Positions 13,068 to 34,466 are shown, numbered from the stretch's first letter. The stretch: 52,692 nt of DNA from Bacteroidales bacterium UBA1722 (GCA_002317435.1 DCIQ01000194.1:1-52692); one strand, 5' to 3'. Notes: a model not told the origin generated them from the letters alone. A program made the numbers and translations.

Positions 13068-13087
13068 CATCATGATGATTTAATAAT

Positions 13088-14725: not shown

Positions 14726-14805
14726 CGTCTGATCATCCGTTCCGGTCATATCATTACGGCCGTATCCTTCTGCGGGAGCAGATGGGTGCGGCCTTTTCTT
14801 CGTGA

Positions 14806-18435
<3,630 letters not shown>

Positions 18436-18444
18436 TGGGTGTCA

Positions 18445-18578
18445 CCATACCGTCTTTTCGTTTCTGGCATGCTTGTTGATGATGGTATGTCAGCATAGAT
18501 AATATGATGGTTAGTGGTGAATAAAAGATTTTGGTTGATAGAGAAGAGTGACTGATGTCCGTCAGTCACTCTTTTTTT
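18445..18578 (+). repeat. Left copy of a ~135-nt direct repeat flanking the NRPS island
   Basis: Hand alignment of 18445.. against 34182.. gives 84 of the first 95 nt identical (~88%). Both copies start ccataccgtcttttcgtttctggca and both end in a hairpin plus T-run. Confidence 0.8.
18546..18578 (+). terminator. Intrinsic terminator after the GH2 gene
   Basis: Perfect 10-bp stem gagtgactga/tcagtcactc, 6-nt loop, then TTTTTTT. Confidence 0.75.
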
Positions 18579-18699
18579 GTCCGTACCCTTCGTGCCGCCT
18601 GTTCGCATCTTATACCGGTGTTGCCGGATAATGCATAAATAATTATCTTCGCGTATTGGAAGCATTGATAAATATTATCTTTTTTTGTTACTGGTGATT

Positions 18700-19002
18700 A
18701 TGACTGACATTATTGAAAATACTCCCGAGAGAATCGTTATCGTCCTCCGGGGTGAACTGGATACACTTGCCGCCAAGTCTTTTGCGGCGGAAATGGAGCC
18801 TGTGATGGCTGATGCAGGGAAGCGGATAATTCTGGATTTTACCGGGTTGGAGTATATCTCGAGTGCCGGCATGCGTACCATCCTCCTGCTGCAGAAAACC
18901 GCCGGTGCCAAGGGTGGGAAGGTGAGTATCAAAGGCATGAGCGAGGATATCCGTCAGATATTCCGCATGACAGGGTTTGACCAAATAATAGAAATATTAT
19001 GA
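18700..19002 (+). CDS. STAS-domain protein (SpoIIAA/RsbV-like anti-sigma-factor antagonist)
   Basis: 100 aa with the typical STAS layout (IVIVLRGELD, ILDFTGLEYISSAGMRTILLL, FRMTGF). The conserved phosphorylatable Ser position is retained (S54 in ISSAG). The stop overlaps the NRPS start (ATGA). Confidence 0.85.
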   Translation: MTDIIENTPERIVIVLRGELDTLAAKSFAAEMEPVMADAGKRIILDFTGLEYISSAGMRTILLLQKTAGAKGGKVSIKGMSEDIRQIFRMTGFDQIIEIL

Positions 19003-22000
19003 TTTATCCGCTTTCACAGACACAGATGGGCATTTACGTATCGAGCATAAATGCCGGTTCGGAAGGAAAATACAATAACAATTTTCTGTATGGAATCGAC
19101 GATGATGTCGATACGGGCAGGCTTGCGGCTGCCATAGACAGGGTCGTGGCGGCTCATCCGGCACTGTTCGCGCGTCTGACCGTGGATGATGACGGAGATA
19201 TGGCGTTCGAGGAGCACAACGATGAAACGTTCCATACGCTGGAGATGAATGTCGGCAGTCTCGACGAGGTGCGTGACCGCATAGGGGCGGACTTCGATCT
19301 GATGAATGACCGGCTGTTCCGTGTCGAAATTTATCATACCGGGCAGGGCACGTTCCTCTACATAGACATACACCACATCATATCTGACGGCATGACTTTC
19401 GCCCATCTCATAGAAGAGATCGGAGAAGTGTATGACGGCGGGGAACCGATGAAGGAGAAAAAGACCATTTTCGACCTTAACCTTGAGGAACAGGCAGTCC
19501 GTAAAAGTGAAGCGTACATGGAGGCGAAGCAGTGGTACGAAGAGCATTTCGCCGCCGCATCCGGAGTGGATTCGCTCCCCCGGAGTGACATGCAGGTGAA
19601 CGGGCCGTCAGCCGTCGGGACATCGGGTATCGGCATATTGGAACGCACTCTGAATATCGACCGTGACGCTCTGGGCAAATTGTGCGGTGAGGCCGGTGTC
19701 CGTGAAAGCGTATTCTACACTGCGGCATTCGCATTCCTGCTGAGCAAGTTCGCGGGGAACGGCGAAGTTCTGTTCTCCACCATCTATCACGGACGTCCGA
19801 ACAGGGAAGACAGGGATGCGTACGGCATGATGGTGAAGACTATGCCCGTTTATCTGGATATGGAGTCCCGGCCTGCCGTGGCGGACCTGCTGCGCTGTAT
19901 GTCGCAGCAGATCAGGGAGAGCCGCAGGCACACCTGCTATTCCTTCGCGGAAATATGCTCGGACCTGGATCTGAAGTCGGACATCCTCTTCTCCTATCAG
20001 GACACCCTCAACACCTTCCCGCTGAAACTTGACGGCAAATTGCAGCAGGATATGCATATCCCGATGCCGCGTCCGGGAATGGTCTTCAATGTAATGCTCC
20101 TGCAGACTGCCGACGGGCCGGTCATCGAGTTCAAGTACCGGAAGGACATGTTCTCCCGGGCCCTCATTCAGGATATGACCCTGAGTTATGAGAAGATACT
20201 CTCGGAATTTCTTCTCCACGAGAAACTCTGTGAAATCTCCATCGTCAGCCCGGAGCAGCAGAAGATTCTCGACACTTTCCACAATACTGCAGCCGCGGAC
20301 GTCCCCTACAAGCGATTCTACGAACCCATAGAGCATTTCGCGGAGGTCGCTCCCGATGCCGCCGCCATCGTCGCCTGTGACAGGACATTATCATACGGGG
20401 AACTGAACGGGGAAGCAAACCGGGTCGCCCATTCCCTGATGTCCCGCGGAGTAAAGCACGGTGACCGTGTCATTCTCCTCCTTCCCCGCACCAGCCGGGT
20501 CATCTGCTGCATGTTCGGTGTAAGCAAGGCGGGTGCCGCGTACATTCCTTGTGATCCCGCTTATCCGGCCGAGCGCATCAACCTCATCCTGGAGGACAGC
20601 GGGGCGAAGTATATCATAACCACGGATGATCATCTGGCAGAGCATGGCGACAAGGCCATCCTCGTCGATGATTTGTTTGACGGCGGTCTTCCGACAGTCA
20701 ACCCGCGGCTCCCGTCCATAACCCCCGATGATTTGGTGTATCTGATTTACACCTCGGGCTCGACCGGCCGGCCGAAGGGCGTGATGCTGCGCCACGAGGC
20801 GATATGCAACTACCTTTATGATCATCCTGCGAACCGCCATATCCATGCGCTCATGACTGAAGGGGTGAAGTCATACCTGTGTCTCACCACCCTCTCCTTC
20901 GACATGTCTCTGAAGGAGTTCGGCGTGGCTCTTCACAACGGCCTCACCTGTGTGCTTGCGAATGAGGAGGAGACCGAGAACCCCCTGCTCCTCGCCGATC
21001 TGATCAGGCGTACGGGAGTGGAGGCGCTCAATGCCACGCCTTCACGTCTGATGGGTTATATGGAGATACCCGAATTCGAGGGGGCCGTGAATAACTGCAA
21101 GGTCATCATGAGCGGCGGAGAAAAGTACTCAGCCACACTTTTGGACAAGTTGCACGGCATCCCCGGACTCCGCATCTTCAACACCTACGGCCCTACGGAA
21201 ATCACGGTCAGCAGCAATGCCGCCGAACTCACCGACACATCGTTCATCACCATCGGACGCCCGCTGCTCAACTACCACGAATGGGTGGTGGATGCCTGCG
21301 GCAATGAACTCCCCATAGGCGTGACCGGGGAACTCTACATCGGTGGCATCGGTGTTGCCGAAGGCTATAATAACCTTCCCGAGAAGACGGCGGACGCATT
21401 TGTCGAATACAGGGGAATGCGTACATACAAGTCCGGGGACTATGCCCGCTGGACACGTGACGGCCATATAGAGGTACTCGGCCGCCGGGACGGACAAATC
21501 AAACTTCACGGTCTTCGCATCGAAATAGGAGAGATCGAGTCCTGTATCAATAAATATCCGGGCATCAGGCAGTGTGTGGTCAAGGTCTGCCATATCAACA
21601 ATGACGATTTTCTCGCGGCGTACTTTACGGCCGGCGAACAGATTGATACCGATAAGCTGAAAGCTGAAATCAGCAATACGCTGACTCACTATATGGTGCC
21701 AAGTGCATTCATGCAGCTGGAATCTTTCCCTCTGACCCCGAACGGGAAAACGGATGTGAAGAACCTGCCGGTGCCCGAAATGATGCCGGCGGTGAATGTG
21801 GAGAAGTCATCAACGGGGCCGGTGGCGCTGAACGATCTGGAAAAGCAGCTGTATGACATCGTTGCGGGTGCATTGAAACTCCCTCTCATCGGGGATTCGG
21901 AAGACGCGGTTCCGGCTTTCGGCGTCACTGACGCACTCTCGTCCGCGGGTCTGAGTTCGCTTTCGGCCATTAAGGTCGCAACGCTGATTTACAAACGTTT

Positions 22001-25000
22001 CGGCATACAGTTGAAATCACGGGAGCTGATGGACGGCGCGACTCTGTTCAGTATCGAGAACCTGATTCTGAAGCGTCTTCTCTCCGCTTCGGACAGTGAA
22101 AACCACGATGCGGAAGAAACCGCTCCTCATCCCGAAAAGAAGAGGTCGGAAACGGAGTTGCCGCTTTCCTTCACCCAGCAGGGTGTCTATACCGAGTGTC
22201 AGGCCAACCCAGATGCGGTGCAATACAATATTCCCGAGTGCATAAAAGTGCCGGACGGTATTACTCCCGAACAGCTGGAGACAGCCGTAAGAAAGGTGGT
22301 GGCCGCGCACCCTTATCTCTTCTGTCACTTTGTCGAAGGTGACAACGGCGATATCGTACAGAAACCGTCGGACAGCACCAGCTTCCGGATACCGCACATC
22401 CAGTGTTCCGCTGAAGGGTTTGAACAGGAGAAGAAAAACTTCGTCCGTCCGTTCCATCTGGCGGAAGGGCCGCTTTTCCGTTTCGAAACGGTGACGGTCG
22501 GCGGCACGCTCCATTTGTTGACGGACATGCATCACCTCATAAGCGACGGCGCTTCGGTGGATCTGTTCATGCATCAACTCTGCCGGGCACTTGACGGCGG
22601 GGAGATAGAGGAGGAAAAATATTCATACTATGACTTCGTCGCCGACCAGCATATCAGTCGGGAGACGGAGGATTTCTTCGCAGACCGCATGGCCAGAGTG
22701 GAGAATTCTTCGCAGCTTATTCCGGATGTATTCGAACAGAATCTGCCGCACACCGAAGGGACGGTTTCCGCACCTTCCGACTTCGCCCCCGTGCAGGCTT
22801 GGGCATCAGAAAATGGCGTGACTCCCGCTGCCGTCTATCTGTCGGCGGCATACTTGTGTGTCTCACGATATCTTTGCGAAGACAACGTAAACCTCTGCAC
22901 CATTTCCAATGGCCGCAGCAACCTCCAGGTGGCGGACACGATGGGTATGTTTGTGAACACTCTCGTGCTTCAGTCATACGTCGACCATCAGGTCTCCTGT
23001 CTTGATTTCGTCAGAACATGTGCCCGGGACTTCGCGCTGACCATCGAAAATGAGAATTATCCGTTCGCGAAGATAGCGGCGAAGTATGGATACCAGCCCA
23101 ATATCGCATTCGCCTATCAGGTCGGCGTGCTCGGCGATTACAGGACGAAGGCGGGAGAACTGGAAATCCGGAGTCTCAGCCTCGAAGTTGCGAAGATCGG
23201 GGTGAACATAACGGTCCGTGGCGAGGATGCGACCGGCTATCGCATAAAGGTAGATTATGATGAAGCTCTGTATTCCCGATACATGATGCAGCAGCTGGCT
23301 GTCAGTATGGAAAATGCCGTTCGGGGAATAATCAGTCGGGAGAAGCTTGGTGATGTCAGCATCACTGATGAGGAACAGTGGAGTGTTCTGGATAAATTCA
23401 ATGCACCGCTCGACTTCGGTTATGACCGGGATGATACGGTCGTCACGAAGTTCAAACGTGTCGCCCGGCAGTATCCGGACCAAAAGGCTTTGGTCTATAT
23501 GGACAAGTCTTACACTTACGGTGAATTGGATAAGTTTACGGATCGTCTTGCGGTAAAGATTCGTGAGCGGATGCTTCCGTATATTCAGGAGGTTGAACGT
23601 CTGCAGGTGGAGCAGGACGGAACAAAACTCACCGATGTGGTGGTCTCCATCCTCATTCACCGTAACGAATGGATGCTCTTGGCTTCACTTGCGGTTTTGA
23701 AGGCAGGATGCGGATATCAGCCGCTGGATCCGAGTTATCCTCAGGACCGTCTGAATTTCATGGCAAAGGATGCCGGCGCCCGTCTTCTCATCGTGGATGA
23801 GGACTTGCGGGATCTTCTCAACGAGTATGACGGGGACGTGCTCCTGACCGGGGACATCGCTGACCTTATAGCCGACACCCCGGAAGGAAGCGTCGATTTC
23901 AGCCGCAAGAACGGTCTTGTCACGCTGCTCTACACTTCCGGTTCCACGGGTGTGCCTAAAGGGTGTATGCTTGAGCACAGAAACCTCGTCGCCTTCGGTC
24001 ATGCCACGCGTACGACCCTGGACATCTCGACCGACAGCCGCATCGCCGCATACGCATCGTTCGGCTTCGATGTGAATATGATGGACATGTACTGCTCCAT
24101 CATGAATGGAGGTACCATGTACATCATCCCGGAAGATATGCGCATGAATCTCGATGTCCTGCATGACTACATTGAAGACGAAGGTATCACTCAGATATTC
24201 ATGACCACGCAGGTGGGCGTGCAGTATCTGGAAAACTATCCCGAGTCCAAGTCTCTCCGCCGCCTTGCGATGGGGGGCGAAAAACTGCGGGCCGTGGATC
24301 CAGGCAAGCTTTCATATAAGATATATAATGGTTATGGACCCAGTGAGATGACCTGCGGTGTCAGCATGTTCACCATCGAAAACTGGGAGCCGAACATTCC
24401 CATCGGACGCCCTATGCCCACACTGCAGGGATATGTCGTCGACAAGACGGGGCACCGTCTCCCGGTGGGCGCCGCCGGTGAACTGTGGATAACAGGTCCT
24501 CAGGTGGCCCGCGGATACTTGAACCGTGCGGACAAGACAGCCGAGGCTTTCTCCGGGAATCCGTTCATCGACCACGCCAGGACTGCGGTCGATTCGGAGC
24601 GTCAGCTCTGCTCGCGCATCTATCACAGCGGCGACATCGTGCGCTACCGCGAAAACGGAGACATAGAGTTCGTCGGACGCAAGGACGGTCAGGTGAAGGT
24701 TCGCGGTTTCCGTATCGAGCTGAAGGAGGTCGAAACTGTCATCCGTGAATTTCAGGGTGTGAAGGACGTTACCGTTCAGGCATACGACTATGAGGACGGC
24801 GGCAAGTATATCGCGGCATTCGTAGTCAGTGACACTGCGGTCGATACCGATGCGCTGAACGCTTTCATCAAGAGTCAGAAGCCTCCCTATATGGTGCCTG
24901 CCGTCACCATGCAGATCGAGAAGATCCCTCTGAACGTAAACCAGAAGGTGGACAAGAAGGCACTTCCCAAACCGGAAGCCAAAAAGGCCGAATATGTCGC

Positions 25001-26492
25001 CCCGAAGGGGAAGACGGAGGAAGACTTCTGTCAGATATTCTCAGAGGTGACGGGTGTCGAAAAAGTGAGTGCCGAGGATGATTTCTTCGAGATCGGCGGC
25101 AGTTCCATTCTGGCTCTGAAGGTCGTTCTTGCCGCAGGAAAGAAGGGATACGGTATCGTGTATAATAACGTGTTCTCCTACACGACTCCAAAGGCGATGG
25201 CGCAGTTCGTGACAGGAAAAAGCGACGATGAAGACTCCGAATCCCCGACATGTCCCGAAACTCCCGGGACCGTCAGAGAAGTGGATGAAGACGGCTATGA
25301 CTATAAGGATGTTAATGCTTTGCTGCGCGGAAATACTATGGAGGCCTTCATGAACGGAGGAAGACAGCCTCTCGGTGATGTCCTTCTGACAGGCGGGACA
25401 GGCTTCCTCGGTGTACATGTACTGCATGATCTCATTGAAAATTATGACAACAGGATTTATTGTCTGGTCCGCGGCGGTAAGGATAAGAGTGCGCAGGCAC
25501 GTCTTGAAGAGTATCTGACCTTCTATTTCGGCAAGTCATACGCCGAATTGACAGGCGGTCGCATTGTGGTCATCGAGGGTGATGCGACAGACCCGGCGAC
25601 CTTTGACAAGGTCATGGAAACGATGGGCGACCATTCCGGAGACTGCACCTGTATAAACTGCGCCGCCTGTGTGAAGCACTTCGCCAAGGGTAACGAGATC
25701 GAGCAGATAAACGTCGGCTCGGTACGCAACATAGTGGATTGGTGTATCCGGACCGGTAACAGACTTGTTCATGTCTCTACGGAGAGCGTGTTCGGCAAGA
25801 ATGATTTCTCGACGTTACCACGCGACTTCCGATATGACGAGCACATACTCTACGGAGGTCAGCAGTTCAGGTACAACCAGTACACGATGTCCAAGTTCGA
25901 GGCTGAAGTGCTCATCTATGAGGCGATTCTTCAGCATGGACTGAATGCCAAGGTTATGCGTGTCGGAAATCTTGCACCGAGATTTGAGGATGGAGGTTTC
26001 CAGATAAATGCCGAAAGCAACAATATGATGAACCTGTTCAAGGCATATATTGCACTGGGCAAGATTCCGTTCAGCGCTATGGATGCCAAACTCGAGTTCT
26101 CGCCGATAAATTATGTCGCACATGCGATATTGCTGCTTGCCGAAACTCCCCGGGAGTGTGTCTGCTTTATGCCGAGCAACCACCACGTCTCACTTCAGGG
26201 CGATATCGTGACGGATATCGCCGGGACACTTCGAAAACCTCTGGAACTGGTGGAGGCCGATGTCTTCGCGAAGGCGGTGCAGGAAGCTCTCGCCTCACCG
26301 GAACTGGTTGACAGCATGCGCCCGTTTATGGCTTATCAGAGCGGCGAATCGAACAGCAGGATGAGAAGTGCAGGTCCCGGAGATTTCTCGAATGCCTTCA
26401 CCATTCAGGTCCTTTACCGTCTCGGCTTCCGTTGGCCGGTGACAGGTACCGGATATGTCGCCCGATTTACAAAGAATCTCTATGGCCTTTGA
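18999..26492 (+). CDS. Non-ribosomal peptide synthetase, two modules plus terminal reductase (C-A-T-C-A-T-R)
   Basis: C1 has HHIISDG (nt ~19371). A1 has YTSGSTGRPKG, NTYGPTE, GELYIGG, YKSGD, GRRDGQIKLHGLRIE, PNGKTD. T1 has AGLSSLSAIK. C2 has MHHLISDG (nt ~22530). A2 has YTSGSTGVPKG, NGYGPSE, GELWITG, YHSGD, GRKDGQVKVRGFRIE. T2 has FFEIGGSSILALK. R has LLTGGTGFLG (nt ~25383) and YTMSK. Confidence 0.95.
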   Translation: MIYPLSQTQMGIYVSSINAGSEGKYNNNFLYGIDDDVDTGRLAAAIDRVVAAHPALFARLTVDDDGDMAFEEHNDETFHTLEMNVGSLDEVRDRIGADFDLMNDRLFRVEIYHTGQGTFLYIDIHHIISDGMTFAHLIEEIGEVYDGGEPMKEKKTIFDLNLEEQAVRKSEAYMEAKQWYEEHFAAASGVDSLPRSDMQVNGPSAVGTSGIGILERTLNIDRDALGKLCGEAGVRESVFYTAAFAFLLSKFAGNGEVLFSTIYHGRPNREDRDAYGMMVKTMPVYLDMESRPAVADLLRCMSQQIRESRRHTCYSFAEICSDLDLKSDILFSYQDTLNTFPLKLDGKLQQDMHIPMPRPGMVFNVMLLQTADGPVIEFKYRKDMFSRALIQDMTLSYEKILSEFLLHEKLCEISIVSPEQQKILDTFHNTAAADVPYKRFYEPIEHFAEVAPDAAAIVACDRTLSYGELNGEANRVAHSLMSRGVKHGDRVILLLPRTSRVICCMFGVSKAGAAYIPCDPAYPAERINLILEDSGAKYIITTDDHLAEHGDKAILVDDLFDGGLPTVNPRLPSITPDDLVYLIYTSGSTGRPKGVMLRHEAICNYLYDHPANRHIHALMTEGVKSYLCLTTLSFDMSLKEFGVALHNGLTCVLANEEETENPLLLADLIRRTGVEALNATPSRLMGYMEIPEFEGAVNNCKVIMSGGEKYSATLLDKLHGIPGLRIFNTYGPTEITVSSNAAELTDTSFITIGRPLLNYHEWVVDACGNELPIGVTGELYIGGIGVAEGYNNLPEKTADAFVEYRGMRTYKSGDYARWTRDGHIEVLGRRDGQIKLHGLRIEIGEIESCINKYPGIRQCVVKVCHINNDDFLAAYFTAGEQIDTDKLKAEISNTLTHYMVPSAFMQLESFPLTPNGKTDVKNLPVPEMMPAVNVEKSSTGPVALNDLEKQLYDIVAGALKLPLIGDSEDAVPAFGVTDALSSAGLSSLSAIKVATLIYKRFGIQLKSRELMDGATLFSIENLILKRLLSASDSENHDAEETAPHPEKKRSETELPLSFTQQGVYTECQANPDAVQYNIPECIKVPDGITPEQLETAVRKVVAAHPYLFCHFVEGDNGDIVQKPSDSTSFRIPHIQCSAEGFEQEKKNFVRPFHLAEGPLFRFETVTVGGTLHLLTDMHHLISDGASVDLFMHQLCRALDGGEIEEEKYSYYDFVADQHISRETEDFFADRMARVENSSQLIPDVFEQNLPHTEGTVSAPSDFAPVQAWASENGVTPAAVYLSAAYLCVSRYLCEDNVNLCTISNGRSNLQVADTMGMFVNTLVLQSYVDHQVSCLDFVRTCARDFALTIENENYPFAKIAAKYGYQPNIAFAYQVGVLGDYRTKAGELEIRSLSLEVAKIGVNITVRGEDATGYRIKVDYDEALYSRYMMQQLAVSMENAVRGIISREKLGDVSITDEEQWSVLDKFNAPLDFGYDRDDTVVTKFKRVARQYPDQKALVYMDKSYTYGELDKFTDRLAVKIRERMLPYIQEVERLQVEQDGTKLTDVVVSILIHRNEWMLLASLAVLKAGCGYQPLDPSYPQDRLNFMAKDAGARLLIVDEDLRDLLNEYDGDVLLTGDIADLIADTPEGSVDFSRKNGLVTLLYTSGSTGVPKGCMLEHRNLVAFGHATRTTLDISTDSRIAAYASFGFDVNMMDMYCSIMNGGTMYIIPEDMRMNLDVLHDYIEDEGITQIFMTTQVGVQYLENYPESKSLRRLAMGGEKLRAVDPGKLSYKIYNGYGPSEMTCGVSMFTIENWEPNIPIGRPMPTLQGYVVDKTGHRLPVGAAGELWITGPQVARGYLNRADKTAEAFSGNPFIDHARTAVDSERQLCSRIYHSGDIVRYRENGDIEFVGRKDGQVKVRGFRIELKEVETVIREFQGVKDVTVQAYDYEDGGKYIAAFVVSDTAVDTDALNAFIKSQKPPYMVPAVTMQIEKIPLNVNQKVDKKALPKPEAKKAEYVAPKGKTEEDFCQIFSEVTGVEKVSAEDDFFEIGGSSILALKVVLAAGKKGYGIVYNNVFSYTTPKAMAQFVTGKSDDEDSESPTCPETPGTVREVDEDGYDYKDVNALLRGNTMEAFMNGGRQPLGDVLLTGGTGFLGVHVLHDLIENYDNRIYCLVRGGKDKSAQARLEEYLTFYFGKSYAELTGGRIVVIEGDATDPATFDKVMETMGDHSGDCTCINCAACVKHFAKGNEIEQINVGSVRNIVDWCIRTGNRLVHVSTESVFGKNDFSTLPRDFRYDEHILYGGQQFRYNQYTMSKFEAEVLIYEAILQHGLNAKVMRVGNLAPRFEDGGFQINAESNNMMNLFKAYIALGKIPFSAMDAKLEFSPINYVAHAILLLAETPRECVCFMPSNHHVSLQGDIVTDIAGTLRKPLELVEADVFAKAVQEALASPELVDSMRPFMAYQSGESNSRMRSAGPGDFSNAFTIQVLYRLGFRWPVTGTGYVARFTKNLYGL

Positions 26493-29376
26493 TTTTTCAA
26501 ACAAAATCGTCGGGGTTCTGGTCGAACGGACGCACGACATAGTGGATGCCGCTGAAGCGATAATCCGCGGTGGCGGCGTTTTCATGCCGATCGACAAAAG
26601 CTATCCTCAGGACCGTGTGGACTACATGATGCAGGATGCCGGGGCCGCTCTGCTTCTGACGACTGACATTCCGAAAGGAAACGGGTGTCTGGACTGGGGA
26701 GGCAAGGATATGGATGATGCGGCGATGATATTATATACTTCCGGAACTTCGGGACGGCCCAAGGGGGTGGTGCATACGCGGCGTTCCATCGAGGCGATGA
26801 TCGCTGCCACCCTGCAAGTCGCTCCCGTCAGGCCGGAGAGCCATGTCGCCATCGTCGCCGGTTTCACATTCATCGCATCTCAATTCCTGATTTTTACGGC
26901 ATTGAAACAAGGAGCCGCGATACATGTCGTCGATGATGCGACGAGACAGGATTTTGATTTGTTGTACGATTACATCAGGGAGCACAGCATAGACATAGTG
27001 TTCCTGCCTCCCGCCATAGCGACCGTCATGGCGGAGGAGTATGATATGCGGGGGATAACGATTCTGTCCGCGGGTGACAAGTTGCGCAACTTCAAATCCA
27101 AATATCCCTGTGTGATTTGCAATATGTACGGCAGCACGGAGGGTGTCATCGTCACTGCGGGGAAGATAACTGGAGACGAACCGAACATCTCCATCGGCAA
27201 ACCGTTGGATGGAATCGACGTGCGCATCGTTGACGAACAGTTGAACGATGTCCCCGAAGGTGAAGTCGGTGAACTGATATACAGCGGAGCCGTTCAGGCC
27301 AAAGAATACCTGAATCTTCCCGAACAGACCGCAGGCAAGTGGTTCACGGGTGAAGACGGCCGGCGCTGGTTCAGGATGGGCGACCGGGTGAACCGCCGGG
27401 ACGACGGTAATCTGTATTATGTGGGCCGTACCGACAATATGGTAAAGATACGCGGATTCCGCGTGGAGACGGGCGAGGTCGAACGACAGATTTCACGTGT
27501 GGTGCCATCCGTCGAGGTGGCCGTCGTAATGCGCACGGTGCATGGTATTGACCATCTGGTGTGTTTCTATGAGAACGACAGTGAGATTCAGACTGATGTG
27601 GTGAAGGAAGAAATCGCGAAATCGCTTGCCGAGTACATGATCCCCGATATATGGGTGCGTCTGGATCGCCTGCCCCGTAACGCCAACGGAAAGGTCGTGC
27701 GTAGGGAACTGCCTGTTCCGGCCTCGGGGGCGGACAAGCTCAGCATCGTATTCAACGAGGTCGAGATGCGTGTCGTGGAGGCTGCCAAACTTATTGTCGG
27801 AGACACCATATCGCTCGATGACAATTTCTTCGAATGCGGGGGAACATCCCTTGGCGCCATCAAACTGGCGACCCTGCTCAAGACCATGGGCATCCATATA
27901 ACCGGTTCGCAGATAATGCAGCTCAGGACACTGCGTTTGGTAGCCAAGGAGGCGAAGGCTGATTATGAACGCCTTTGGACCTCTGAACAGTACCGTGAAA
28001 TATGCGACAGTTTCGCGGCGAGAGGCGAAAAAATCCGGAAGGTCCTGCCTCTTTCTACGGAACAGGAAGACATACTCATCCGCTATCTGATGCATCCTGA
28101 TGCCACCGCTTACCGGAATGTATTTCTGCTCAAGCTGGACAGCCGTGTCGATAAGGATATTCTGCGCAGTGTCATAAATGAAGTCTCCGACAGGTATGAA
28201 GTTCTCCGTTCTGCGATCGTCATTCACCACAAGGCGCCCTTTCAGCAGATAATCACAGACAGGTGTGTGCCCCTGGATATTTATGATGATATCGCTGACA
28301 CGGACATAAGTTATGTGAAGAGCCTTTACAGGCGATATATGCACACTCCTTATGATCCGGAAATATCGTCCCTGATGCGTTTCGGTTACGTTCCTCTCTC
28401 CGACGGCACTTCGTTTCTGCTGCTCCTTGTAAATAATGTCAGCGTGTCGATGAGCATAGCCCGCCGCACGATTCATGATGTTATGGACCGACTTTCCGGA
28501 CACTTCCCGGATGACCTGTCGATAACCGGGTGGCGTGATCTGGCGGCACTTGCATTGAGCAGTGAAAGTCAGAATGTGACGGGGGGTGCTGACGTCGAAA
28601 TAAAAAAGCCTGTTGACAACGGATTGATAAGGGTCTATTCTCCGTTGAAGGAGGGTAAACCCCCGGTGACGTTTGTCCATACCGGAAATACCGGGAGTGA
28701 TGCGTACTATCGTCTTGCCGACAGGATAGGAGAGAATTGTGCGTTTTCTGTCATTGAACCATATAATCTGTTCCATCAGGATGACATACGGCATGGTATC
28801 GGGAATATCGCACGGAAATATGTGGAAATCCTCCGTGATTATCAGCCGGAGGGTCCTTACATACTTGGGGGATGGTGCTATGGAGGTGTTGTCGCACACG
28901 AGATGGCCTGCCAGCTCCAAGCGATGGGGGAGGAGGTCCGCCATCTGATAATGTTTGACTCCCACGCGCTGACGGACGACAATCTGACATCTATGGCGAG
29001 GGATATGCAGGGAACCGTCGACCGTGAATATTTCGAGACTTGCCCGCTCTTCGAAGATCTTCGCGGACAGGGACTTCTGGAGGCGATGATCAATAACTGC
29101 GCACAGGTCTGCCATGACCTCCTGCATCACACTCCTTCCATGTTCCATGGAGCCACGACATATTTCAAACCCCTCCGTACACCTGTGGCAGCTACGGGCA
29201 ACGCTCTTGAATATTGGAAGAGGATGATGGAATTCGATGCCGGAAATTACGAGAATTTCTGTGATCGGAATCAGTTGCGTATTATCAATACCCCTCATGA
29301 GCACGATCTTATGATGGACGATGAATCGCTGGCCGTCACGGTACCGGCCATCAACGGAATACTTGGTCATCATTAA
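26482..29376 (+). CDS. Non-ribosomal peptide synthetase, A-T-(degenerate C fragment)-TE
   Basis: The A domain starts near core A2 (no LTYxEL region). It has ILYTSGTSGRPKG, NMYGSTE, FRMGD, GRTDNMVKIRGFRVE, NANGKV. T has FFECGGTSLGAIK. A ~190-aa C-domain N-lobe follows, with VNNVSVS in place of HHxxxDG. The alpha/beta-hydrolase TE has GGWCYGG. The ATG at 26482 overlaps the upstream stop (ATGGCCTTTGA); an alternative ATG lies at 26455. Confidence 0.9.
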   Translation: MAFDFSNKIVGVLVERTHDIVDAAEAIIRGGGVFMPIDKSYPQDRVDYMMQDAGAALLLTTDIPKGNGCLDWGGKDMDDAAMILYTSGTSGRPKGVVHTRRSIEAMIAATLQVAPVRPESHVAIVAGFTFIASQFLIFTALKQGAAIHVVDDATRQDFDLLYDYIREHSIDIVFLPPAIATVMAEEYDMRGITILSAGDKLRNFKSKYPCVICNMYGSTEGVIVTAGKITGDEPNISIGKPLDGIDVRIVDEQLNDVPEGEVGELIYSGAVQAKEYLNLPEQTAGKWFTGEDGRRWFRMGDRVNRRDDGNLYYVGRTDNMVKIRGFRVETGEVERQISRVVPSVEVAVVMRTVHGIDHLVCFYENDSEIQTDVVKEEIAKSLAEYMIPDIWVRLDRLPRNANGKVVRRELPVPASGADKLSIVFNEVEMRVVEAAKLIVGDTISLDDNFFECGGTSLGAIKLATLLKTMGIHITGSQIMQLRTLRLVAKEAKADYERLWTSEQYREICDSFAARGEKIRKVLPLSTEQEDILIRYLMHPDATAYRNVFLLKLDSRVDKDILRSVINEVSDRYEVLRSAIVIHHKAPFQQIITDRCVPLDIYDDIADTDISYVKSLYRRYMHTPYDPEISSLMRFGYVPLSDGTSFLLLLVNNVSVSMSIARRTIHDVMDRLSGHFPDDLSITGWRDLAALALSSESQNVTGGADVEIKKPVDNGLIRVYSPLKEGKPPVTFVHTGNTGSDAYYRLADRIGENCAFSVIEPYNLFHQDDIRHGIGNIARKYVEILRDYQPEGPYILGGWCYGGVVAHEMACQLQAMGEEVRHLIMFDSHALTDDNLTSMARDMQGTVDREYFETCPLFEDLRGQGLLEAMINNCAQVCHDLLHHTPSMFHGATTYFKPLRTPVAATGNALEYWKRMMEFDAGNYENFCDRNQLRIINTPHEHDLMMDDESLAVTVPAINGILGHH

Positions 29377-31114
29377 TGGAAATCAGAAGGTGAAACGGAA
29401 AGTTTTTTTGATCAACAAGGCATTCAACAAATACCTGTGGGCTTCCATTCTGGGAGTGGCAGCCTCGCAGATCGCGAATATCGTCGATGCGTCGCTGGTG
29501 GGAAACATCATCGGGGCCGACGGGCTGGCGGCTGTCGTAATCAGCAAGCCGGTTCTTCAGGCCATTTTCGCCATCTCCTGTTTTTATGCCGTGAGCTGCA
29601 GCATGATCGCCGGTATGGCTTTGGGTAATGGCGAAAAGGCCGCCGCCGACTCACAGTTCTCATTCTCCATGGCGGCAAGTCTGGTATTGGGAATAGTGAT
29701 TTCCGCCGGGGGGCTGATTTTCATCGAACCCCTGATGGACCTGTTCTGCAGATCACAGGAGCTTCGTCCCATGGCCAAATCATTTATGACGGTGACCATA
29801 CTGTCGGCCCTTCCCCAGCTGTTCATGTACACACTGCACCGGTTTGTCACTACGGACGGCTCACCGAAACTGATTTCCAAGGCTGTAATCGTGGGAAACC
29901 TGGTCAACGTCGTTCTGGATGTCGTCTTTATGAAATATCTGAACATGGGCATAGCCGGCGCCGCATGGGCTACGTTCATCATGTATATAGTGTGTTGTGT
30001 CATGGTGATTCCGCATTTCCGTAAGAAGGATACGCTTCGTCTGGCATTCGGACGATGTCGGAAACTTATCTCCGTCAGACAGATACTGACCTTGGGAACA
30101 CCGATTTTCCTCTCTACCGTGCTCCTTTCCGTGCAGTACACGTGCTACAATGGCATCGCCGTCACATATCTGGGCAAATCCGGGCTCATCGCCCTGGCGG
30201 TTTGTCTGCAGCTGTTCAGTTTCTCCATGATTATCCTCACCGGAACTTTGCAAGCCATTCAGCCTGTAGGCGCCATACTCAAAGGTATCAATGACTCGAA
30301 GGGGATAATCATGCTTTTGGGAAAAGCTTATAAGTTTCTGGCGGTCTGTCTGGCGGTCTATTCACTGCTGATTGTTATCTTCCCTGTGGAGATATCCGGT
30401 TTCCTGGGGGTGAAAGATGGAAGTGCGCTCCCGACCGTCATGGCGGCTTTGCCTGCTTTCTCTCTGAATATCGTGATGCAGGCGCTGCTCTACAACCTGA
30501 TGCCTGTCTATCAGTTCTACAATCATCACCGCATGGCACTGTTTCTGTCCGTAGGTCAGACATTGCTGCCGATTGCCGGTTTCTGGGCACTGGCGCATTT
30601 TCAGACGTTCAACCCGTGGTATGGTTTTTTTCTCGGTCAGTCAGTGACAGCCATTGTCCTTTTGGTGTCATCACTGTTCATCAGCAGGAAGGAAAATTCG
30701 ATTCCTGTGTTCCTGGTTCCCCGCGGAAATGGATTCCCGTCGCTGGAGATGTCGTTCGGCTACTCCGAAGAAGCGATGCATAAGGCATTTGACGAGATGA
30801 GCGGGTGGCTTGGGCAGCAGAATCTTTCGAAGAGCATAATCTTCAAGGTCCGTATTCTGGCAGAGGAACTGATGTCCAATATAATCCGTCACAGCGGACA
30901 GAAAGACAAGAATGCGTTCGCCGACGTGCGTCTGTTTATGCAGGAGGATGCAGTCATATTCGCCCTCACGGATGACGGCAAACCGTTCAATCCCATTGAA
31001 AACAAGGACAAGGGGTATGGCCTGATGATAGCCAACGGAGTCGCAAGTGACATTTCATACAAATATCAATTCGGCCAAAATATGACCAATGTAATCATAA
31101 ATACAGAAGCGTGA
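29321..31114 (+). CDS. MATE family efflux transporter fused to a C-terminal RsbW/SpoIIAB-like GHKL (HATPase_c_2-type) domain
   Basis: ~440 aa with 12 hydrophobic segments and MATE-like repeats (IVDASLVGNIIGADGLAAV). The C-terminal ~130 aa carries N-box AEELMSNIIRH, LTDDGKPFNP and KGYGLMIANG. The start is uncertain: the ATG at 29321 overlaps the upstream gene by 56 nt, while the in-frame GTG at 29390 (VKRKVFLINK) lies 14 nt after the upstream stop and may be the true start. Confidence 0.8.
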   Translation: MNRWPSRYRPSTEYLVIINGNQKVKRKVFLINKAFNKYLWASILGVAASQIANIVDASLVGNIIGADGLAAVVISKPVLQAIFAISCFYAVSCSMIAGMALGNGEKAAADSQFSFSMAASLVLGIVISAGGLIFIEPLMDLFCRSQELRPMAKSFMTVTILSALPQLFMYTLHRFVTTDGSPKLISKAVIVGNLVNVVLDVVFMKYLNMGIAGAAWATFIMYIVCCVMVIPHFRKKDTLRLAFGRCRKLISVRQILTLGTPIFLSTVLLSVQYTCYNGIAVTYLGKSGLIALAVCLQLFSFSMIILTGTLQAIQPVGAILKGINDSKGIIMLLGKAYKFLAVCLAVYSLLIVIFPVEISGFLGVKDGSALPTVMAALPAFSLNIVMQALLYNLMPVYQFYNHHRMALFLSVGQTLLPIAGFWALAHFQTFNPWYGFFLGQSVTAIVLLVSSLFISRKENSIPVFLVPRGNGFPSLEMSFGYSEEAMHKAFDEMSGWLGQQNLSKSIIFKVRILAEELMSNIIRHSGQKDKNAFADVRLFMQEDAVIFALTDDGKPFNPIENKDKGYGLMIANGVASDISYKYQFGQNMTNVIINTEA

Positions 31115-32901
31115 GACGAATAGCAATAACACTCATCCTCTCCGTCATCGTGTTTGCGGCCACAATTCTGGTCTCAATCATGTACATATCCAGAAAGAGC
31201 CTCGAAACAGCGGATTATTTCAACAATCTCGCTCTGGACAATTTTCAGGATGAACTGAATGATGAAATTTTCCTGACCAGGCAGTCCGCTTTCAGTTTCC
31301 TTACCGGAATTCCTTCCGTATATGTAGGGAAGGACAGTGCCAGCATCATCATCGATGAAAAGGAACTGTCCGAGTTCAAGGATGCGATCCATGACGTTCT
31401 GATACAGTTCATGAGAGTCAATAAGTATTATCGGAATACGATGTTCATCATCGACAGGGATATATGCCGCAAATACTTCCCATGTGAAGATACTGCTTAC
31501 ATCGGGCATTGTACGAAGGGATTTGTCCCTGCCGTCCTGCAGGGTGACAATGCATTGTATGACCTGTCCGACCAGTATGACTTTATGGGTTCCGCCCGAT
31601 ATCAACAGTTGAAAAGAGAAAGAAAAATTCTTTGGACCGCACCTCAACCTGTCTCTCCGGAGGAAATGAGATTGTTGATACTCCAAGTGCCGATGACTTT
31701 GAGCAACGGACAGTTCGCAGGTGCATTCACCGTGTCGCTGGATATCGGGACGGTAAATGAAAAATTGAAGAATTACCTGCCGTTCGGTGAGGAGTATTCC
31801 GCCATATTCCTTGTTGACGAAAACGACAATATATTTTCCTCCTGTCCGGAATGGATTATGGAGCCGGACAGCCAGGAAGAAATTCGTAATTCCACCGATC
31901 TGCTGCAGAGACACGACGAGGGCGCCGAGCATAATATCATTAAAATCGGTGAGGATGAATACTATGTATATCAGCGTGATGACCTTTCATTGCCCTGGAG
32001 AGTCTTCACGGCCAATAACTCGAAAGCCATTTATCACGACGCGAAGCATGTGGTCAACGCCATGATTCTCTCCTCAGTCACGGGAATGCTTATGATGCTT
32101 GTCTGCTGCGTCGTCATTTTTCGTCAGACACGAAAGAATCTGCGCAAGAAAGCGGCCATAGAGGAGGAGCTGCGTATGGCTGCGATGGTGCAGACCTCGA
32201 TGCTGAAGCCGTCCACCTGTACCTTCTCACATAATTCCTCACCGATCATCCTGAATGCCTTTGTGCAGCCGGCCAAAAAGGCGGGAGGAGATCTATATGA
32301 TTATATCGAGAAAGATGGAAAACTTATCTTCTGTATCGGTGACGTCTCCGGAAAGGGGATGCCGGCGGCACTGTTCATGACCCAGGTGGTTTCACTCTTC
32401 CGCAATGCGGTGCGCCGTACTTCGGAACCGTCTGAAATAGTATGTCAGATAAATGACGTGCTTTCAGACAATTCCGAGATGACTTTCTGTACCTTCTTTG
32501 CAGGTGTGCTGTGCGGGGATGAAATAACGTTCTGCAATGCAGGCCACAATCCCCCCGTGTTCATTTCTTCCCGCTCCTCATATCTGAAAGTGCGTCCCAA
32601 TATCGCGATCGGGCTGATGGAAGGCTATCCATACCGGTCGGAGACCATTTCCTTCCGTCCGGGGGACAAATTGGTGCTCTATACCGATGGAGTCACTGAA
32701 GCAAAGGACAGAAACCATAGACTGTATGGTGAGGAGAGACTTCTCAAGGTGCTTGAATCCATTTCGCGAAGTTCGGGTGCCGAAACCGGTTCATGGATCA
32801 ACACGGCCATCAGAAAATCCATGGAACAGTTCACACGACACGCCGAGCAGAGTGACGACATCACGATAATGAGTATCGAAAATTCACATATTATGTCCTG
32901 A
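31111..32901 (+). CDS. Transmembrane PP2C/SpoIIE-family serine phosphatase with ~300-aa extracytoplasmic sensor domain (RsbU-like)
   Basis: TM1 is IAITLILSVIVFAATILVSIMYI, followed by a ~300-aa loop and TM2 VVNAMILSSVTGMLMMLVCCVVIF. The SpoIIE domain has GGDLYDY, GDVSGKGMPAALFM, LYTDGVTEA, SDDITIM. The GTG start overlaps the MATE stop (GTGA). Confidence 0.85.
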   Translation: MRRIAITLILSVIVFAATILVSIMYISRKSLETADYFNNLALDNFQDELNDEIFLTRQSAFSFLTGIPSVYVGKDSASIIIDEKELSEFKDAIHDVLIQFMRVNKYYRNTMFIIDRDICRKYFPCEDTAYIGHCTKGFVPAVLQGDNALYDLSDQYDFMGSARYQQLKRERKILWTAPQPVSPEEMRLLILQVPMTLSNGQFAGAFTVSLDIGTVNEKLKNYLPFGEEYSAIFLVDENDNIFSSCPEWIMEPDSQEEIRNSTDLLQRHDEGAEHNIIKIGEDEYYVYQRDDLSLPWRVFTANNSKAIYHDAKHVVNAMILSSVTGMLMMLVCCVVIFRQTRKNLRKKAAIEEELRMAAMVQTSMLKPSTCTFSHNSSPIILNAFVQPAKKAGGDLYDYIEKDGKLIFCIGDVSGKGMPAALFMTQVVSLFRNAVRRTSEPSEIVCQINDVLSDNSEMTFCTFFAGVLCGDEITFCNAGHNPPVFISSRSSYLKVRPNIAIGLMEGYPYRSETISFRPGDKLVLYTDGVTEAKDRNHRLYGEERLLKVLESISRSSGAETGSWINTAIRKSMEQFTRHAEQSDDITIMSIENSHIMS

Positions 32902-32960
32902 TCATCTCCCGTTTTTATCGGGCGGCAATATTTTTCAATCATTACTAATTTCTATTTTTC

Positions 32961-34112
32961 ATGAAAACTTTTTTGCATGTACTTCTTCTTGGTTCAGCTG
33001 TGTTTTCGGTATCATGTCGGCAAGGCATTTCAGACAAGATACTGATTGAAGGAACCGTTATTAATATCGACCAGTATGGAGGACTGGAGCCGTCTTTCAC
33101 ACCGGATGCCCTGGAAAAGGCCGGAGTGGCTTATGGAGATTTGCTGACGCTTTCCATAGGAGATGATATAGTGGTGTCCGCACCTTATGTTGATGCCTAT
33201 ACGGAGGCAGGCAGCATGTCGCCTTGTCTCTGCAATTATAACCGGGCCGGCAAGATGGTGACAGCGGCCATGTCAAACGGTAGTTTTGCCAACCACGTAG
33301 GAGGTAAGGTTGGTGACAGTATTGTCGTAAGAATGCAGAAGAAGGAAGGATACCTCCGGGAATACGAACTTCTGCAAGGAACCTACACATACGATCGTTC
33401 TGAATATTCCGATGATGAAGTTTTTGCCAATTTCCGTGAGTTGAAAGGCACTGGCCTTAAACCGGGCGTATTGTTCAGGAGCACCAGCCCGATCAATTTC
33501 AAGAACAATAAAATCAGGTATACATATTCATCCGAACTATGTCGCGTCAATGGCATTAAAACTATCATCGATATAGCCGATTCGGATGCCAAGGTCGCGG
33601 AGTATCTGTCCGCGGCTGAGAGCGAAGGAAGCTATATGCTGGAAATTCAGAGCAAGGGAAATATAGTAGGTCTCGGCTCAAATGCAGACTACATCGATAC
33701 CACATTCATGCGCAAGGCAGCCCGTGCGTTCCGTGAAATGATTTCCAAACCCGGGCCGTATCTGATTCACTGCAACGAAGGAAAGGACCGTACAGGTTTC
33801 TACTGCCTGCTTCTCGAAGCTTTGTGCGGCGCGAGTGTCGAAGAGATAGAATTGGATTATATGTTGACATTCGAAAACCTCTATCATCAGAAAAAAGGCA
33901 CAGAACAATACGAACTCACCTGGAAAAAGAACGGATTCAGGATGCTCTATCAGCTGGCTAATCCACAAGTTTGGGATCATGTGATTTTGATTGACTGGGA
34001 CAAAGTCTCGATTGACGGTGCGGATTTGGCCGAGGCGGCGGAGAATTACATCCTGATGATCGGTCTCTCGTCTGCGGAGATCGACGCACTGAAAAATATA
34101 ATTTCCGAATAA
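32961..34112 (+). CDS. Lipoprotein with CX5R tyrosine-phosphatase-family domain (Y_phosphatase3-like) and an N-terminal beta-barrel-like domain
   Basis: Lipobox VFSVSC. Active-site motif HCNEGKDRTG (CX5R). The N-terminal ~110 aa (GTVINIDQYGG...GDSIVVRM) resembles the C-terminal domain of SAM hydroxide adenosyltransferase/DUF62 proteins; that assignment is tentative. Confidence 0.7.
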   Translation: MKTFLHVLLLGSAVFSVSCRQGISDKILIEGTVINIDQYGGLEPSFTPDALEKAGVAYGDLLTLSIGDDIVVSAPYVDAYTEAGSMSPCLCNYNRAGKMVTAAMSNGSFANHVGGKVGDSIVVRMQKKEGYLREYELLQGTYTYDRSEYSDDEVFANFRELKGTGLKPGVLFRSTSPINFKNNKIRYTYSSELCRVNGIKTIIDIADSDAKVAEYLSAAESEGSYMLEIQSKGNIVGLGSNADYIDTTFMRKAARAFREMISKPGPYLIHCNEGKDRTGFYCLLLEALCGASVEEIELDYMLTFENLYHQKKGTEQYELTWKKNGFRMLYQLANPQVWDHVILIDWDKVSIDGADLAEAAENYILMIGLSSAEIDALKNIISE

Positions 34113-34181
34113 TGCAGGCTGGCCGCAGACGTCGGCAGATCTGGATGCTGTCTAAATGTCTGAAATAATCCGATGCCTGTT

Positions 34182-34317
34182 CCATACCGTCTTTTCGTTT
34201 CTGGCACACTTGTTGACAATGGTATGTCAGCATAGATGATGTGATGGTTGATGGTGAATAAATGGTTTTGGTTAATGGAAAAAAGGTGACTGATAAAACT
34301 TATCGGTCACCTTTTTT
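34182..34317 (+). repeat. Right copy of the ~135-nt direct repeat flanking the NRPS island
   Basis: See the left copy at 18445..18578. Same orientation and same internal 6-bp complement (catacc/ggtatg). Different terminator hairpin sequence at the 3' end. Confidence 0.8.
34284..34317 (+). terminator. Intrinsic terminator closing the island
   Basis: Stem aggtgactgat/atcggtcacct (one G-T wobble), 7-nt loop, then TTTTTT. Confidence 0.7.
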
Positions 34318-34438
34318 CTGTATATGTATTATTTCCAGACGATTTTTGTCCTCCTGTCTCATAAATGTAATCAGTGCATATTTGGCCAAATGCAATGTCG
34401 ATCGGTGCCTTTTGGCTGATTATCTTAATTTTTATCCT

Positions 34439-34446
34439 TATATTTG
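34439..34446 (+). promoter_or_regulatory. Bacteroides-type -7 box (TAtaTTTG) for the AAA ATPase gene
   Basis: TATATTTG lies 21 nt before the ATG at 34467. Confidence 0.4.
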
Positions 34447-34466
34447 CCCATCTGACAAGGACAAAC

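Follow-up and report, generated by a model that had tools for sequence, protein, structure and literature searches.

Neisserial Correia elements and enterobacterial REP/BIME sequences are present in tens to hundreds of copies and often have terminal inverted repeats. In the Bacteroidota, 21 UTR-derived small RNA (sRNA) candidates are known from Bacteroides thetaiotaomicron, and the Bacteroidetes -7 promoter motif has been defined as TAnnTTTG (PMC7366714). Each of the 14 FopS copies has a sigma-ABfr promoter of its own, and the 5' seed is unstructured (RF04319; PMC11697453).

The locus described here lies in a 52,692-nt stretch of DNA from Bacteroidales bacterium UBA1722, referred to below as the window, and contains two copies of a ~135-nt sequence. 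With a probability that we put at roughly 0.6, the pair represents paralogous copies of a lineage-restricted ~135-nt 3'-UTR/terminator module, possibly the source of a 3'-derived sRNA, the right copy being ancestral and the left copy strain-specific. As in intrinsic terminators and the 3'-UTR-derived sRNAs of B. thetaiotaomicron, a stem-loop and U-run are positioned directly past a stop codon on the coding strand; in further likeness to those sRNAs, the copies lack a promoter motif of their own, and the structured body would share the terminator of the parental mRNA. The module differs from the B. thetaiotaomicron 3'-UTR-derived sRNAs in standing behind two unrelated genes and in its restriction to one uncultured lineage.

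Position and copy number of the repeat

The two copies and the genes upstream of them are:

18445–18578, + strand: left copy, consisting of 5' domain, linker and terminator (covariance-model match of 140.8 bits at 18445–18577)
34182–34318 (end at 34317 or 34318), + strand: right copy (covariance-model match of 167.8 bits)
14869–18435, + strand: GH2 gene (RicinB lectin and GH2, Pfam), upstream of the left copy, with its own -7 box TATATTTG at 14843
32961–34112, + strand: Y_phosphatase3 lipoprotein gene (Pfam), upstream of the right copy

The copies have the same orientation and begin with the same bases (CCATACCGTCTTTTCGTTTCTGGCA). A repeat search of the window aligned them without gaps at 87% identity over 104 nt, and BLASTN at 86.7% over 113 nt (E ~2e-33). 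The original prediction had counted 84 identities in the first 95 nt of these ~135-nt copies, a figure that was reproduced from the alignment, and had noted the CATACC/GGTATG complement, which is found in both. A 25-mer and a second 19-mer from the repeat each occur twice in the window when up to three mismatches are allowed, against 0.00 and 0.01 matches, respectively, expected from shuffled sequence. The left copy begins 10 nt 3' of the GH2 stop codon (TGA at 18433–18435), as had been stated, and the right copy 69 nt 3' of the phosphatase stop codon (34110–34112). The right copy was also correctly placed just before the ATPase gene, whose ATG at 34467 is 149 nt downstream. In the same-strain contigs L001 and L003 the left copy is identical.

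The sequence could belong to a REP/MITE-like intergenic repeat, mobile or recombinogenic, that is dispersed through this genome; the left copy would then have been newly inserted from a third one. The copy number speaks against this reading, which we consider unlikely. No third copy was found in the 52.7-kb window by the covariance model with its filters off, and no further copy by the covariance model in ~209 kb of related loci; five related metagenomes each contain a single locus per population (likeness of at least 80%). Viral contigs gave no match, and neither did 185,579 species genomes, a set that is evidently without this organism, the window's own copies not being returned. The spurious ORF that runs across the left copy forms a singleton in a set of 1.84 billion representative proteins. 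In addition, the copies have no terminal inverted repeats. The genome-wide intergenic element that the original prediction had offered is therefore unsupported in the data that could be reached. The likeness to Correia and REP/BIME elements is that of a short non-coding module which supplies a gene-end terminator hairpin and appears as an indel between strains; in contrast with them, only two copies are seen here and their termini are not inverted. No Rfam family reached its threshold on the repeat.

Predicted fold and terminators

In the predicted fold, a stem-loop domain occupies the 5' part of each copy; a C-free linker connects it to a strong hairpin, which a T-run follows:

18445–18517, + strand: predicted 5' domain of the left copy, a long-range outer helix around a hairpin (MFE fold)
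34182–34254, + strand: predicted 5' domain of the right copy (fold and consensus structure)
34255–34277, + strand: linker of the right copy, C-free and rich in G, U and A
18540–18578, + strand: intrinsic terminator of the left copy, with a 17-bp stem, a 4-nt loop and T7
34278–34318, + strand: intrinsic terminator of the right copy, with 19-nt arms, T6 and an A-run on the 5' side

The fold z-scores are -5.1 for the left copy and -5.7 for the other. Both terminators show the characteristics of the intrinsic class, namely a G+C-containing stem-loop with a T-run, on the same strand as the gene, past its end and before the next promoter. Both hairpins are perfect or nearly so, the left stem of 17 bp including a perfect core of 12 nt. 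The sequences of the two stems are not the same, but the changes compensate each other (GA..TC against AG..CT) beside a common GTGAC/GTCAC core, in line with the earlier description of the terminal hairpins as different but equivalent. Owing to the A-run on its 5' side, the right terminator presents a hairpin and T-run on both strands, and the symmetry of this hairpin explains a minus-strand covariance-model match of 34.5 bits at the same place.

Four sequences were available for structural comparison, two of them rebuilt from difference tables. The consensus structure is possible in all four; among these sequences, five pairs of the 5' domain are changed on one side yet still paired, none is changed on both sides, and one is broken in a single sequence. 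The single-stranded 5' seed (R1) that precedes the terminator in the FopS/GibS group is not predicted here, pairing being predicted for the first 73 nt in 4/4 sequences.

Promoter context

Two promoter-like motifs lie 3' of the copies:

34439–34446, + strand: -7 motif of the ATPase gene, a perfect match to the Bacteroidetes form (TATATTTG, TTTG upstream), 3' of the right copy
18676–18683, + strand: relaxed -7-like motif TATCTTTT, in a spacer conserved with the related contig L087, 3' of the left copy and 5' of the STAS gene

No match to TAnnTTTG, the sigma-ABfr -7 motif, was found in or upstream of either copy. The sequences upstream of the two copies are unrelated, that of the left copy being GH2 coding sequence. 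Since a stop codon lies just upstream, the promoter of the next gene lies downstream and there is no promoter motif of its own, each copy is most probably co-transcribed with the gene before it (GH2 and Y_phosphatase3, respectively), forming its 3' UTR, and would end that transcript. In the proposed module, a structured 5' domain would be joined by a C-free, single-stranded linker to a strong Rho-independent terminator, and a stable 3'-UTR-derived sRNA could arise from it.

The absence of a promoter motif and the unrelated upstream regions speak against the proposal that the copies form a two-member family of independent trans-acting sRNA genes, which would have an unrecognised promoter of their own and, like Bacteroides GibS and FopS, act by base-pairing, here with the C-free linker. 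The two systems have in common paralogous copies in a PUL-bearing Bacteroidota genome, and a single-stranded stretch followed by a terminator hairpin. Paralogous PUL-linked sRNA families are known in Bacteroides (PMC11697453), and several features would suit such a gene: the strong terminator, the structured body, the single-stranded linker, rich in G and U and unvarying among the orthologues of the right copy, and a right copy that is better conserved than its surroundings (see below). In contrast with FopS, the element here has two copies, no promoter motif and a predicted structured 5' domain. Against the proposal, the Rfam FopS model (RF04319) scores 18.1 bits against a gathering threshold of 56, on the hairpin/terminator only, and among the translation-start regions of the window none pairs better than background with both linkers. 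Independent sRNA genes are, on balance, a rather doubtful explanation.

Conservation of the right copy

An orthologue of the right copy is present after the phosphatase gene in the related contig L086, with 113 of 117 positions identical (96.6%); third codon positions of the adjacent genes differ at 13–26% and the preceding spacer at 7%. Two further variants of the orthologue (A and B) were recovered from Logan runs. The linker and terminator are unchanged in both, so that all three orthologues of the right copy agree in this part. Its retention behind the phosphatase gene in related populations marks the right copy as ancestral. The distance between the left and right copies is about that between right-copy orthologues of different populations, in agreement with the earlier argument that ~12% divergence speaks against a very recent duplication.

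One further feature overlaps the start of the right copy:

34173–34235, + strand: possible 20-codon ORF encoding MPVPYRLFVSGTLVDNGMSA, followed by a stop codon; not favoured

This ORF would fit a live or remnant small protein gene, with the 5' part of the repeat encoding the ~20-aa peptide, followed by its own terminator. Neither the right copy nor its two orthologue variants show any disruption of the ATG...TAG frame, and the sole indel, in variant B, falls past its stop codon. However, the substitutions (~3 synonymous and 6 non-synonymous, omega ~0.7) are indistinguishable from neutral, the ATG is lost in the left copy, where only a GTG start (18439) is found, and the most conserved part of the repeat, the linker and terminator, is outside the ORF. 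A protein-coding role is, for these reasons, very improbable.

Absence of the left copy in relatives

The left copy is part of a segment that relatives of the window strain do not have. The features of this junction, and the conserved gene unit that follows it, are:

18436–18611, + strand: extra segment of ~175 nt (9 nt, the left copy and a 33-nt tail), absent at the GH2–STAS junction of relatives, from the L087 alignment
18447–18452, + strand: ATACCG, first microhomology member, within the repeat start at the edge of the extra segment
18612–18617, + strand: ATACCG, second microhomology member, the first bases past the extra segment
18693–32882, + strand: conserved NRPS unit (STAS; NRPS C-A-T-C-A-T-R; NRPS A-T-C-TE; MatE::HATPase_c_2; dCache/SpoIIE PP2C)

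Relatives with an empty site come from two independent data sets, one JGI contig and Logan contigs of four runs. They have the cluster but not the left copy, the GH2 stop codon being followed by a spacer of 97–105 nt and then STAS/NRPS. In the first data set (L087), the GH2 gene is 90.5% identical and its end reads TGA-GGA-ATACCGG..., with a 105-nt spacer before STAS. In the second, contig X5 bridges position 18435 to 18637 by GGAATACCGGTTTTGTCGGATAATGCATGG, the same 30 letters, while contigs X1–X3 bridge 18435 to 18693 with 97 nt between. The sequence of the empty site in the relatives is GGAATACCGG.

The linker and terminator of the left copy differ at 14 of 58 positions, as compared with 0 among the right-copy orthologues, and its 5' domain is at an equal distance from all of them. 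The 33-nt tail has no other match. The left copy appears to be secondary, known only from the lineage of the window strain, and we infer a gain rather than a loss; alternatively, the relatives may have lost the left copy through slippage between the two ATACCG motifs.

It is here that the dispersed-repeat reading finds its support: the left copy is an indel with respect to close relatives, with the 6-nt ATACCG at both edges, and its equidistant 5' domain, different 3' half and unique tail would fit another donor copy. Nevertheless, ATACCG belongs to the repeat itself in both copies, and the edges are therefore not a clean target-site duplication. The 14 differences in the linker and terminator, together with the unmatched tail, could also mean that the left copy derives from a third one, as yet unseen, at another site of this genome.

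For the 3'-UTR/terminator module, we propose that the left copy arose within the ~175-nt GH2–STAS segment by microhomology-mediated copying, as suggested by the ATACCG at the junction. The cluster would have adjoined GH2 before the left copy existed, and the arrival of the copy would have separated the NRPS cluster from the last PUL gene by a strong terminator. A more specific and clearly speculative proposal, which we hold to be improbable, is that the module is a previously undescribed, structured 3'-derived sRNA of an uncultured Alistipes-like Bacteroidales lineage, with the invariant C-free linker as its seed, and that the duplication both insulates the cluster and adds a GH2-driven copy of the sRNA. 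If this were true, the copy behind GH2 would shield the NRPS/partner-switching cluster from PUL read-through, and the second sRNA copy would come under glycan-induced transcription, tying polysaccharide use to the control of secondary metabolites.

Relation of the repeats to the gene cluster

According to the original prediction, the repeats bracket the NRPS genes as an island. The repeats do not mark the boundaries of the cluster or an insertion site, because the same cluster occupies this position in close relatives that have no left copy. The extent of the cluster leads to the same result. In BLASTN, the window and L004, a relative with a different genomic context, are 80.4% identical over 14.2 kb, only at 18693–32882; this common unit leaves out both repeat copies and the phosphatase gene. 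The left copy is 115 nt outside it, and the right copy 1.3 kb outside, past an extra gene. The Y_phosphatase3 gene is also outside the unit conserved in L004, L083 and L085, and no repeat copy was found beside the clusters in other contexts (L004, L083, L084, L085 and L005–L007).

Where an island is bounded by att sites, its accessory genes lie between direct repeats, and the copies described here likewise flank a functionally coherent set of genes in the same orientation. Integration by site-specific or homologous recombination, duplicating a ~135-nt target with one copy at each end, is nonetheless highly unlikely. Neither repeat coincides with an end of the conserved unit, relatives in which the cluster adjoins GH2 at the same junction are missing one of them, and no copy borders the clusters found in other contexts. 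One of the two is already lacking in the closest relatives, yet the copies have diverged by 13%; they are also far longer than typical att cores. No tRNA was found in the window, and the Pfam domains recorded for the interval from the GH2 gene through the ATPase gene include no integrase, transposase or recombinase, as the original prediction had noted for integrase and transposase. The composition of the cluster is that of its flanks: the GC content is 0.518, compared with 0.515 and 0.511, and the tetranucleotide correlation is 0.86–0.91 between cluster and flanks and 0.92 between the flanks themselves. The proposed search for an empty site in related strains recovered no island-free site; the relatives that have the cluster lack the left copy, contrary to a boundary. 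Of the interpretations first offered, att-like scars are not upheld, and a genome-wide element has no support in the data that could be reached; nothing that was observed conflicts with a small RNA or terminator element, the option on which the explanation proposed here is based.

A panB gene is located near the cluster in both the window and L005.

The two copies of the repeat

The contig carries two same-strand copies of one element:

18445-18578, + strand: left copy, after the GH2 gene; begins CCATACCGTCTTTTCGTTTCTGGCA
34182-34318, + strand: right copy, after the Y_phosphatase3 lipoprotein gene; begins CCATACCGTCTTTTCGTTTCTGGCA

The copies are 87% identical across 104 ungapped nt (86.7% across 113 nt by BLASTN, E ~2e-33). 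The conserved 25-nt and 19-nt blocks each occur exactly twice in the window at up to 3 mismatches, with shuffle expectations of 0.00 and 0.01, so the pair reported in the original prediction is real and far beyond chance. Their placement was also correct: the left copy lies 10 nt past the GH2 stop (TGA, 18433-18435), and the right copy lies just before the ATPase gene, 149 nt from its ATG.

No third copy was found in the 52.7-kb window by a covariance model run with filters off, and the left copy on its own is in no indexed sequencing run. Scans of the genome_contigs collection (an exact 21-mer and a 23-mer with two N) and of viral contigs (two patterns) gave 0 matches; since the collection scans miss the window's own copies, their silence concerns other organisms only, and not further copies in this genome. 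An 18-mer scan of metagenome_contigs gave 75 matches, all chance or coding. About 40 of these were rejected as one human-gut membrane-protein gene sharing a 21-mer; this 21-mer, TACCGTCTTTTCGTTTCTGGC, lies coincidentally within a conserved coding region of a common human-gut organism (about 40 contigs, L010-L081) and is unrelated to the element. Two lookalike loci, L017 and L034, scored 13-15 bits with the covariance model (E 0.5-1.3) and were dismissed as chance. A minus-strand ORF of 122 aa across the left copy (18297-18665), called as a gene in a public assembly (L001), is almost certainly spurious, because it has no Pfam match and matches only itself among 1.84 billion representative proteins.

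Predicted structure

The two copies fold on the + strand into the same architecture, with z-scores against shuffles of -5.1 (left) and -5.7 (right):

Outer helix, predicted, both copies: CCAUACCGUC with GAUGGUU..GUGG
Inner hairpin, predicted, both copies: inside the outer helix domain
Linker, both copies: about 25 nt, C-free
3' hairpin: long and perfect, followed by T7 (left) or T6 (right)

The terminator stems are unlike in sequence and completely paired in both copies; the pairs beside the shared GTGAC/GTCAC core are G-C and A-U in the left copy, and A-U and G-C in the right. That stems so unlike are still fully paired argues that both terminators are being maintained, and the "different but equivalent" hairpins with T-runs of the original prediction are borne out. 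The CATACC/GGTATG complement that it described is likewise present in both copies (18446-18451 with 18484-18489 in the left copy, and correspondingly in the right), and could pair into a helix incompatible with the predicted outer and inner ones.

A structural alignment was built from the left copy, the right copy and variants A and B, two right-copy orthologues from Logan runs that were rebuilt from contig difference tables. A single consensus structure accommodates 4/4 sequences; CATACC and GGTATG are invariant in all of them and compatible with either conformation. In the 5' domain, five pairs show a one-sided change that is still paired (G-U/A-U, C-G/U-G), one is broken in one sequence and none has changed on both sides, so that covariation in these sequences is suggestive of the 5' structure and no more. 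A coding origin, through a 20-codon ORF overlapping the 5' part of the repeat, is very doubtful: the substitutions are about 3 synonymous against 6 non-synonymous.

The right terminator (34278-34318) has an A-run before its stem and a T-run after it, so that either strand shows a hairpin followed by a T-run (the model matches the minus strand at 34.5 bits); there is no convergent gene to use it. In an Rfam search of the whole window at gathering thresholds no family passes for the repeat, and for both copies at E up to 10 there are generic hairpin matches only. With the model of FopS, a Bacteroides sRNA, the repeat scores 18 bits against the 56 needed, through the hairpin part only.

Absence of the left copy from relatives

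The window is a metagenome-assembled contig, with identical pieces in JGI 3300020112, JGI 3300001598 and SRR5323914 (L001-L003). L087, a contig from the same JGI sample, has a GH2 gene of 90.5% DNA identity, with 19% difference at third codon positions. After this gene it reads TGA GGA ATACCGGTTTTGTCGGATAATGCATGG..., with a 105-nt spacer and then STAS; the left copy is absent. Compared with L087 the window has about 175 additional nt (18436-18611), made up of 9 nt, then the left copy, then a tail of 33 nt, GTCCGTACCCTTCGTGCCGCCTGTTCGCATCTT, that matches nothing else. The motif ATACCG occurs twice, at 18447-18452 inside the repeat start and at 18612-18617, the point from which window and relative are homologous again. 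Independent support comes from a second data set, Logan contigs belonging to a 2024 study: a contig of sequencing run X5 joins 18435 to 18637 by the letters GGAATACCGGTTTTGTCGGATAATGCATGG, and contigs of runs X1-X3 join 18435 to 18693 with 97 nt between, at a depth of 19-35.

The right copy is kept in relatives. Contig L086 carries the PP2C gene, the phosphatase gene and a right copy identical at 113/117 positions; its third codon positions differ from the window's by 26% (PP2C) and 13% (phosphatase gene), and the 69-nt spacer preceding the copy is 7% different. Contigs aligned to the right copy fall into two orthologue variants. Variant A matches L086. In variant B, the 5' domain carries 9 substitutions and an inserted TGGT, with 0 changes across the 65-nt linker and terminator. 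No element accompanies the phosphatase homologues of 60-69% identity (two loci, L088 and L089), whose genomic contexts are different.

In the 5' domain the left copy differs at 7-8 of 73 positions from each right-copy orthologue, and those differ from variant B at 9/73. In the linker and terminator, the left copy differs at 14/58 positions and the right-copy orthologues at 0. Two readings of these alignments fit: the left copy may be old, with its 3' half free to drift, or it may have been copied from a third, unseen paralogue. The divergent 3' half and the unmatched 33-nt tail would also suit a dispersed repeat with unseen copies, which we consider quite unlikely; one locus only per metagenome resembles either copy at 80% or more. 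From two relatives and no outgroup, we infer that the left copy was gained rather than lost.

In L087 (1-1200), a xanthine/uracil permease gene with its terminator (93% identical to window 1839-2915) joins the GH2 promoter and gene directly. The 12-kb PUL core at window 2916-14790 (hybrid two-component regulator, DUF6057, PD40 protein, SusC, SusD) is missing there. Judged from these contigs, the large presence/absence polymorphism with respect to the nearest relative is the PUL core on the far side of GH2, and not the NRPS cluster.

Position and origin of the copies

The right copy begins 69 nt past the stop of the Y_phosphatase3 lipoprotein gene. The sequences upstream of the two copies are unrelated, that of the left being the GH2 coding end. 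The Bacteroidetes -7 motif, TAnnTTTG (PMC7366714), occurs neither inside either copy nor in the sequence preceding either. The motifs noted nearby are:

14843: the GH2 gene's own -7 motif
18676: relaxed -7 motif TATCTTTT, between the left copy and STAS
34439: perfect -7 motif TATATTTG, TTTG upstream, between the right copy and the ATPase ATG

With a stop codon before and the next gene's promoter motif after each copy, the copies occupy the slot of a 3' UTR plus terminator. That they are independent sRNA genes is unlikely, neither having a promoter motif. There is a modest chance that the 3'-end module is also a small RNA; when the whole body and the linker were compared by RNAduplex with the window's translation-start regions (34), no pairing above background was common to both copies.

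The evidence fits a module of 3' UTR and terminator, unannotated and lineage-restricted, that has been duplicated locally. The right copy would belong to the phosphatase gene as its resident 3' UTR and terminator, under some constraint, and the left would be a later copy set into the GH2-STAS spacer in one lineage, probably by an illegitimate, microhomology-guided event at ATACCG. The relatives' spacer has no hairpin-plus-T-run, so the left copy would separate the NRPS cluster from the last PUL gene by a strong predicted terminator. A 3'-end module that brings its own terminator can apparently be inserted in a spacer where relatives have none, altering operon insulation between PUL and biosynthetic genes; should the module turn out to be a stable RNA, it would be one more candidate sRNA from a gut or rumen lineage that has been little studied.

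The ATPase gene region, described earlier as low in GC, has the lowest GC in the window (0.43). In runs X5 and X6, separate contigs match just 42 nt round the ATPase gene promoter (window 34411-34452), a sign that promoter sequence may be common to paralogous ATPase_2/AAA_14 genes.

The NRPS cluster and its supposed boundaries

The original prediction took the repeats to bracket a 15.6-kb NRPS island, perhaps as att-like scars of its integration. This reading is contradicted on four counts and is most improbable. L087 and the Logan contigs lack the left copy and yet keep the cluster at the same GH2 junction. DNA homology with contig L004 is confined to 18693-32882, starting 7 nt ahead of the STAS ATG and stopping where PP2C ends, leaving both copies and the phosphatase gene outside the shared unit. 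Cluster and flanks are alike in composition: GC is 0.518 in the cluster against 0.515 and 0.511 in the flanks, and tetranucleotide correlation is 0.86-0.91 between cluster and flanks and 0.92 between the flanks. There is no tRNA in the window, and no recombinase domain among the genes from GH2 to the ATPase, in which range the reported lack of an integrase holds.

Homologues of the second NRPS, at 83% to 63% amino acid identity, occur in this gene cluster in a number of further contigs, where the neighbours are unlike and the repeat has no copy:

L004: GH95 upstream, M56/TonB gene downstream
L083: DUF4372 (IS4-type) ORF downstream
L084: HTH gene beside the cluster
L085: PFK beside the cluster
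L005-7: other gene order, then fasciclin, addB-like, uvrD-like and panB genes

The panB gene lies at window 46085-46900, 13 kb from the cluster, and at 21703-22521 in L005, 8.7 kb away, where the NRPS is only 63% identical; its proximity in both suggests that the chromosomal neighbourhood is old and shared. Compositionally native and long resident, the NRPS cluster sits amid surroundings under remodelling, and the tempting but wrong view of it as a recent integrant delimited by att-like repeats is removed.

The cluster (18700-32901) contains a full partner-switching set: a STAS antagonist, a PP2C phosphatase of dCache/SpoIIE type, and a MatE efflux protein to which an HATPase_c_2 anti-sigma-type kinase is fused. 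The two NRPSs have the domain orders C-A-T-C-A-T-reductase and A-T-C-TE. At 39-45% identity, the second NRPS has homologues that carry the labels of Lachnospiraceae, Eubacteriales and Bacteroidaceae MAGs.

L004 (16850-16934) and L085 (7019-7103) share a non-coding segment of 85 nt, at 89% identity, about 230 nt downstream of PP2C and followed by different genes in each; absent from the window and with no Rfam match, it may be the real right-hand limit of the cluster unit in these two contigs. In L083 the DUF4372 ORF (14272-14415) starts 226 nt past PP2C. DUF4372 is an N-terminal domain characteristic of IS4-type transposases, and this ORF is the sole mobile-element gene observed beside any version of the cluster.
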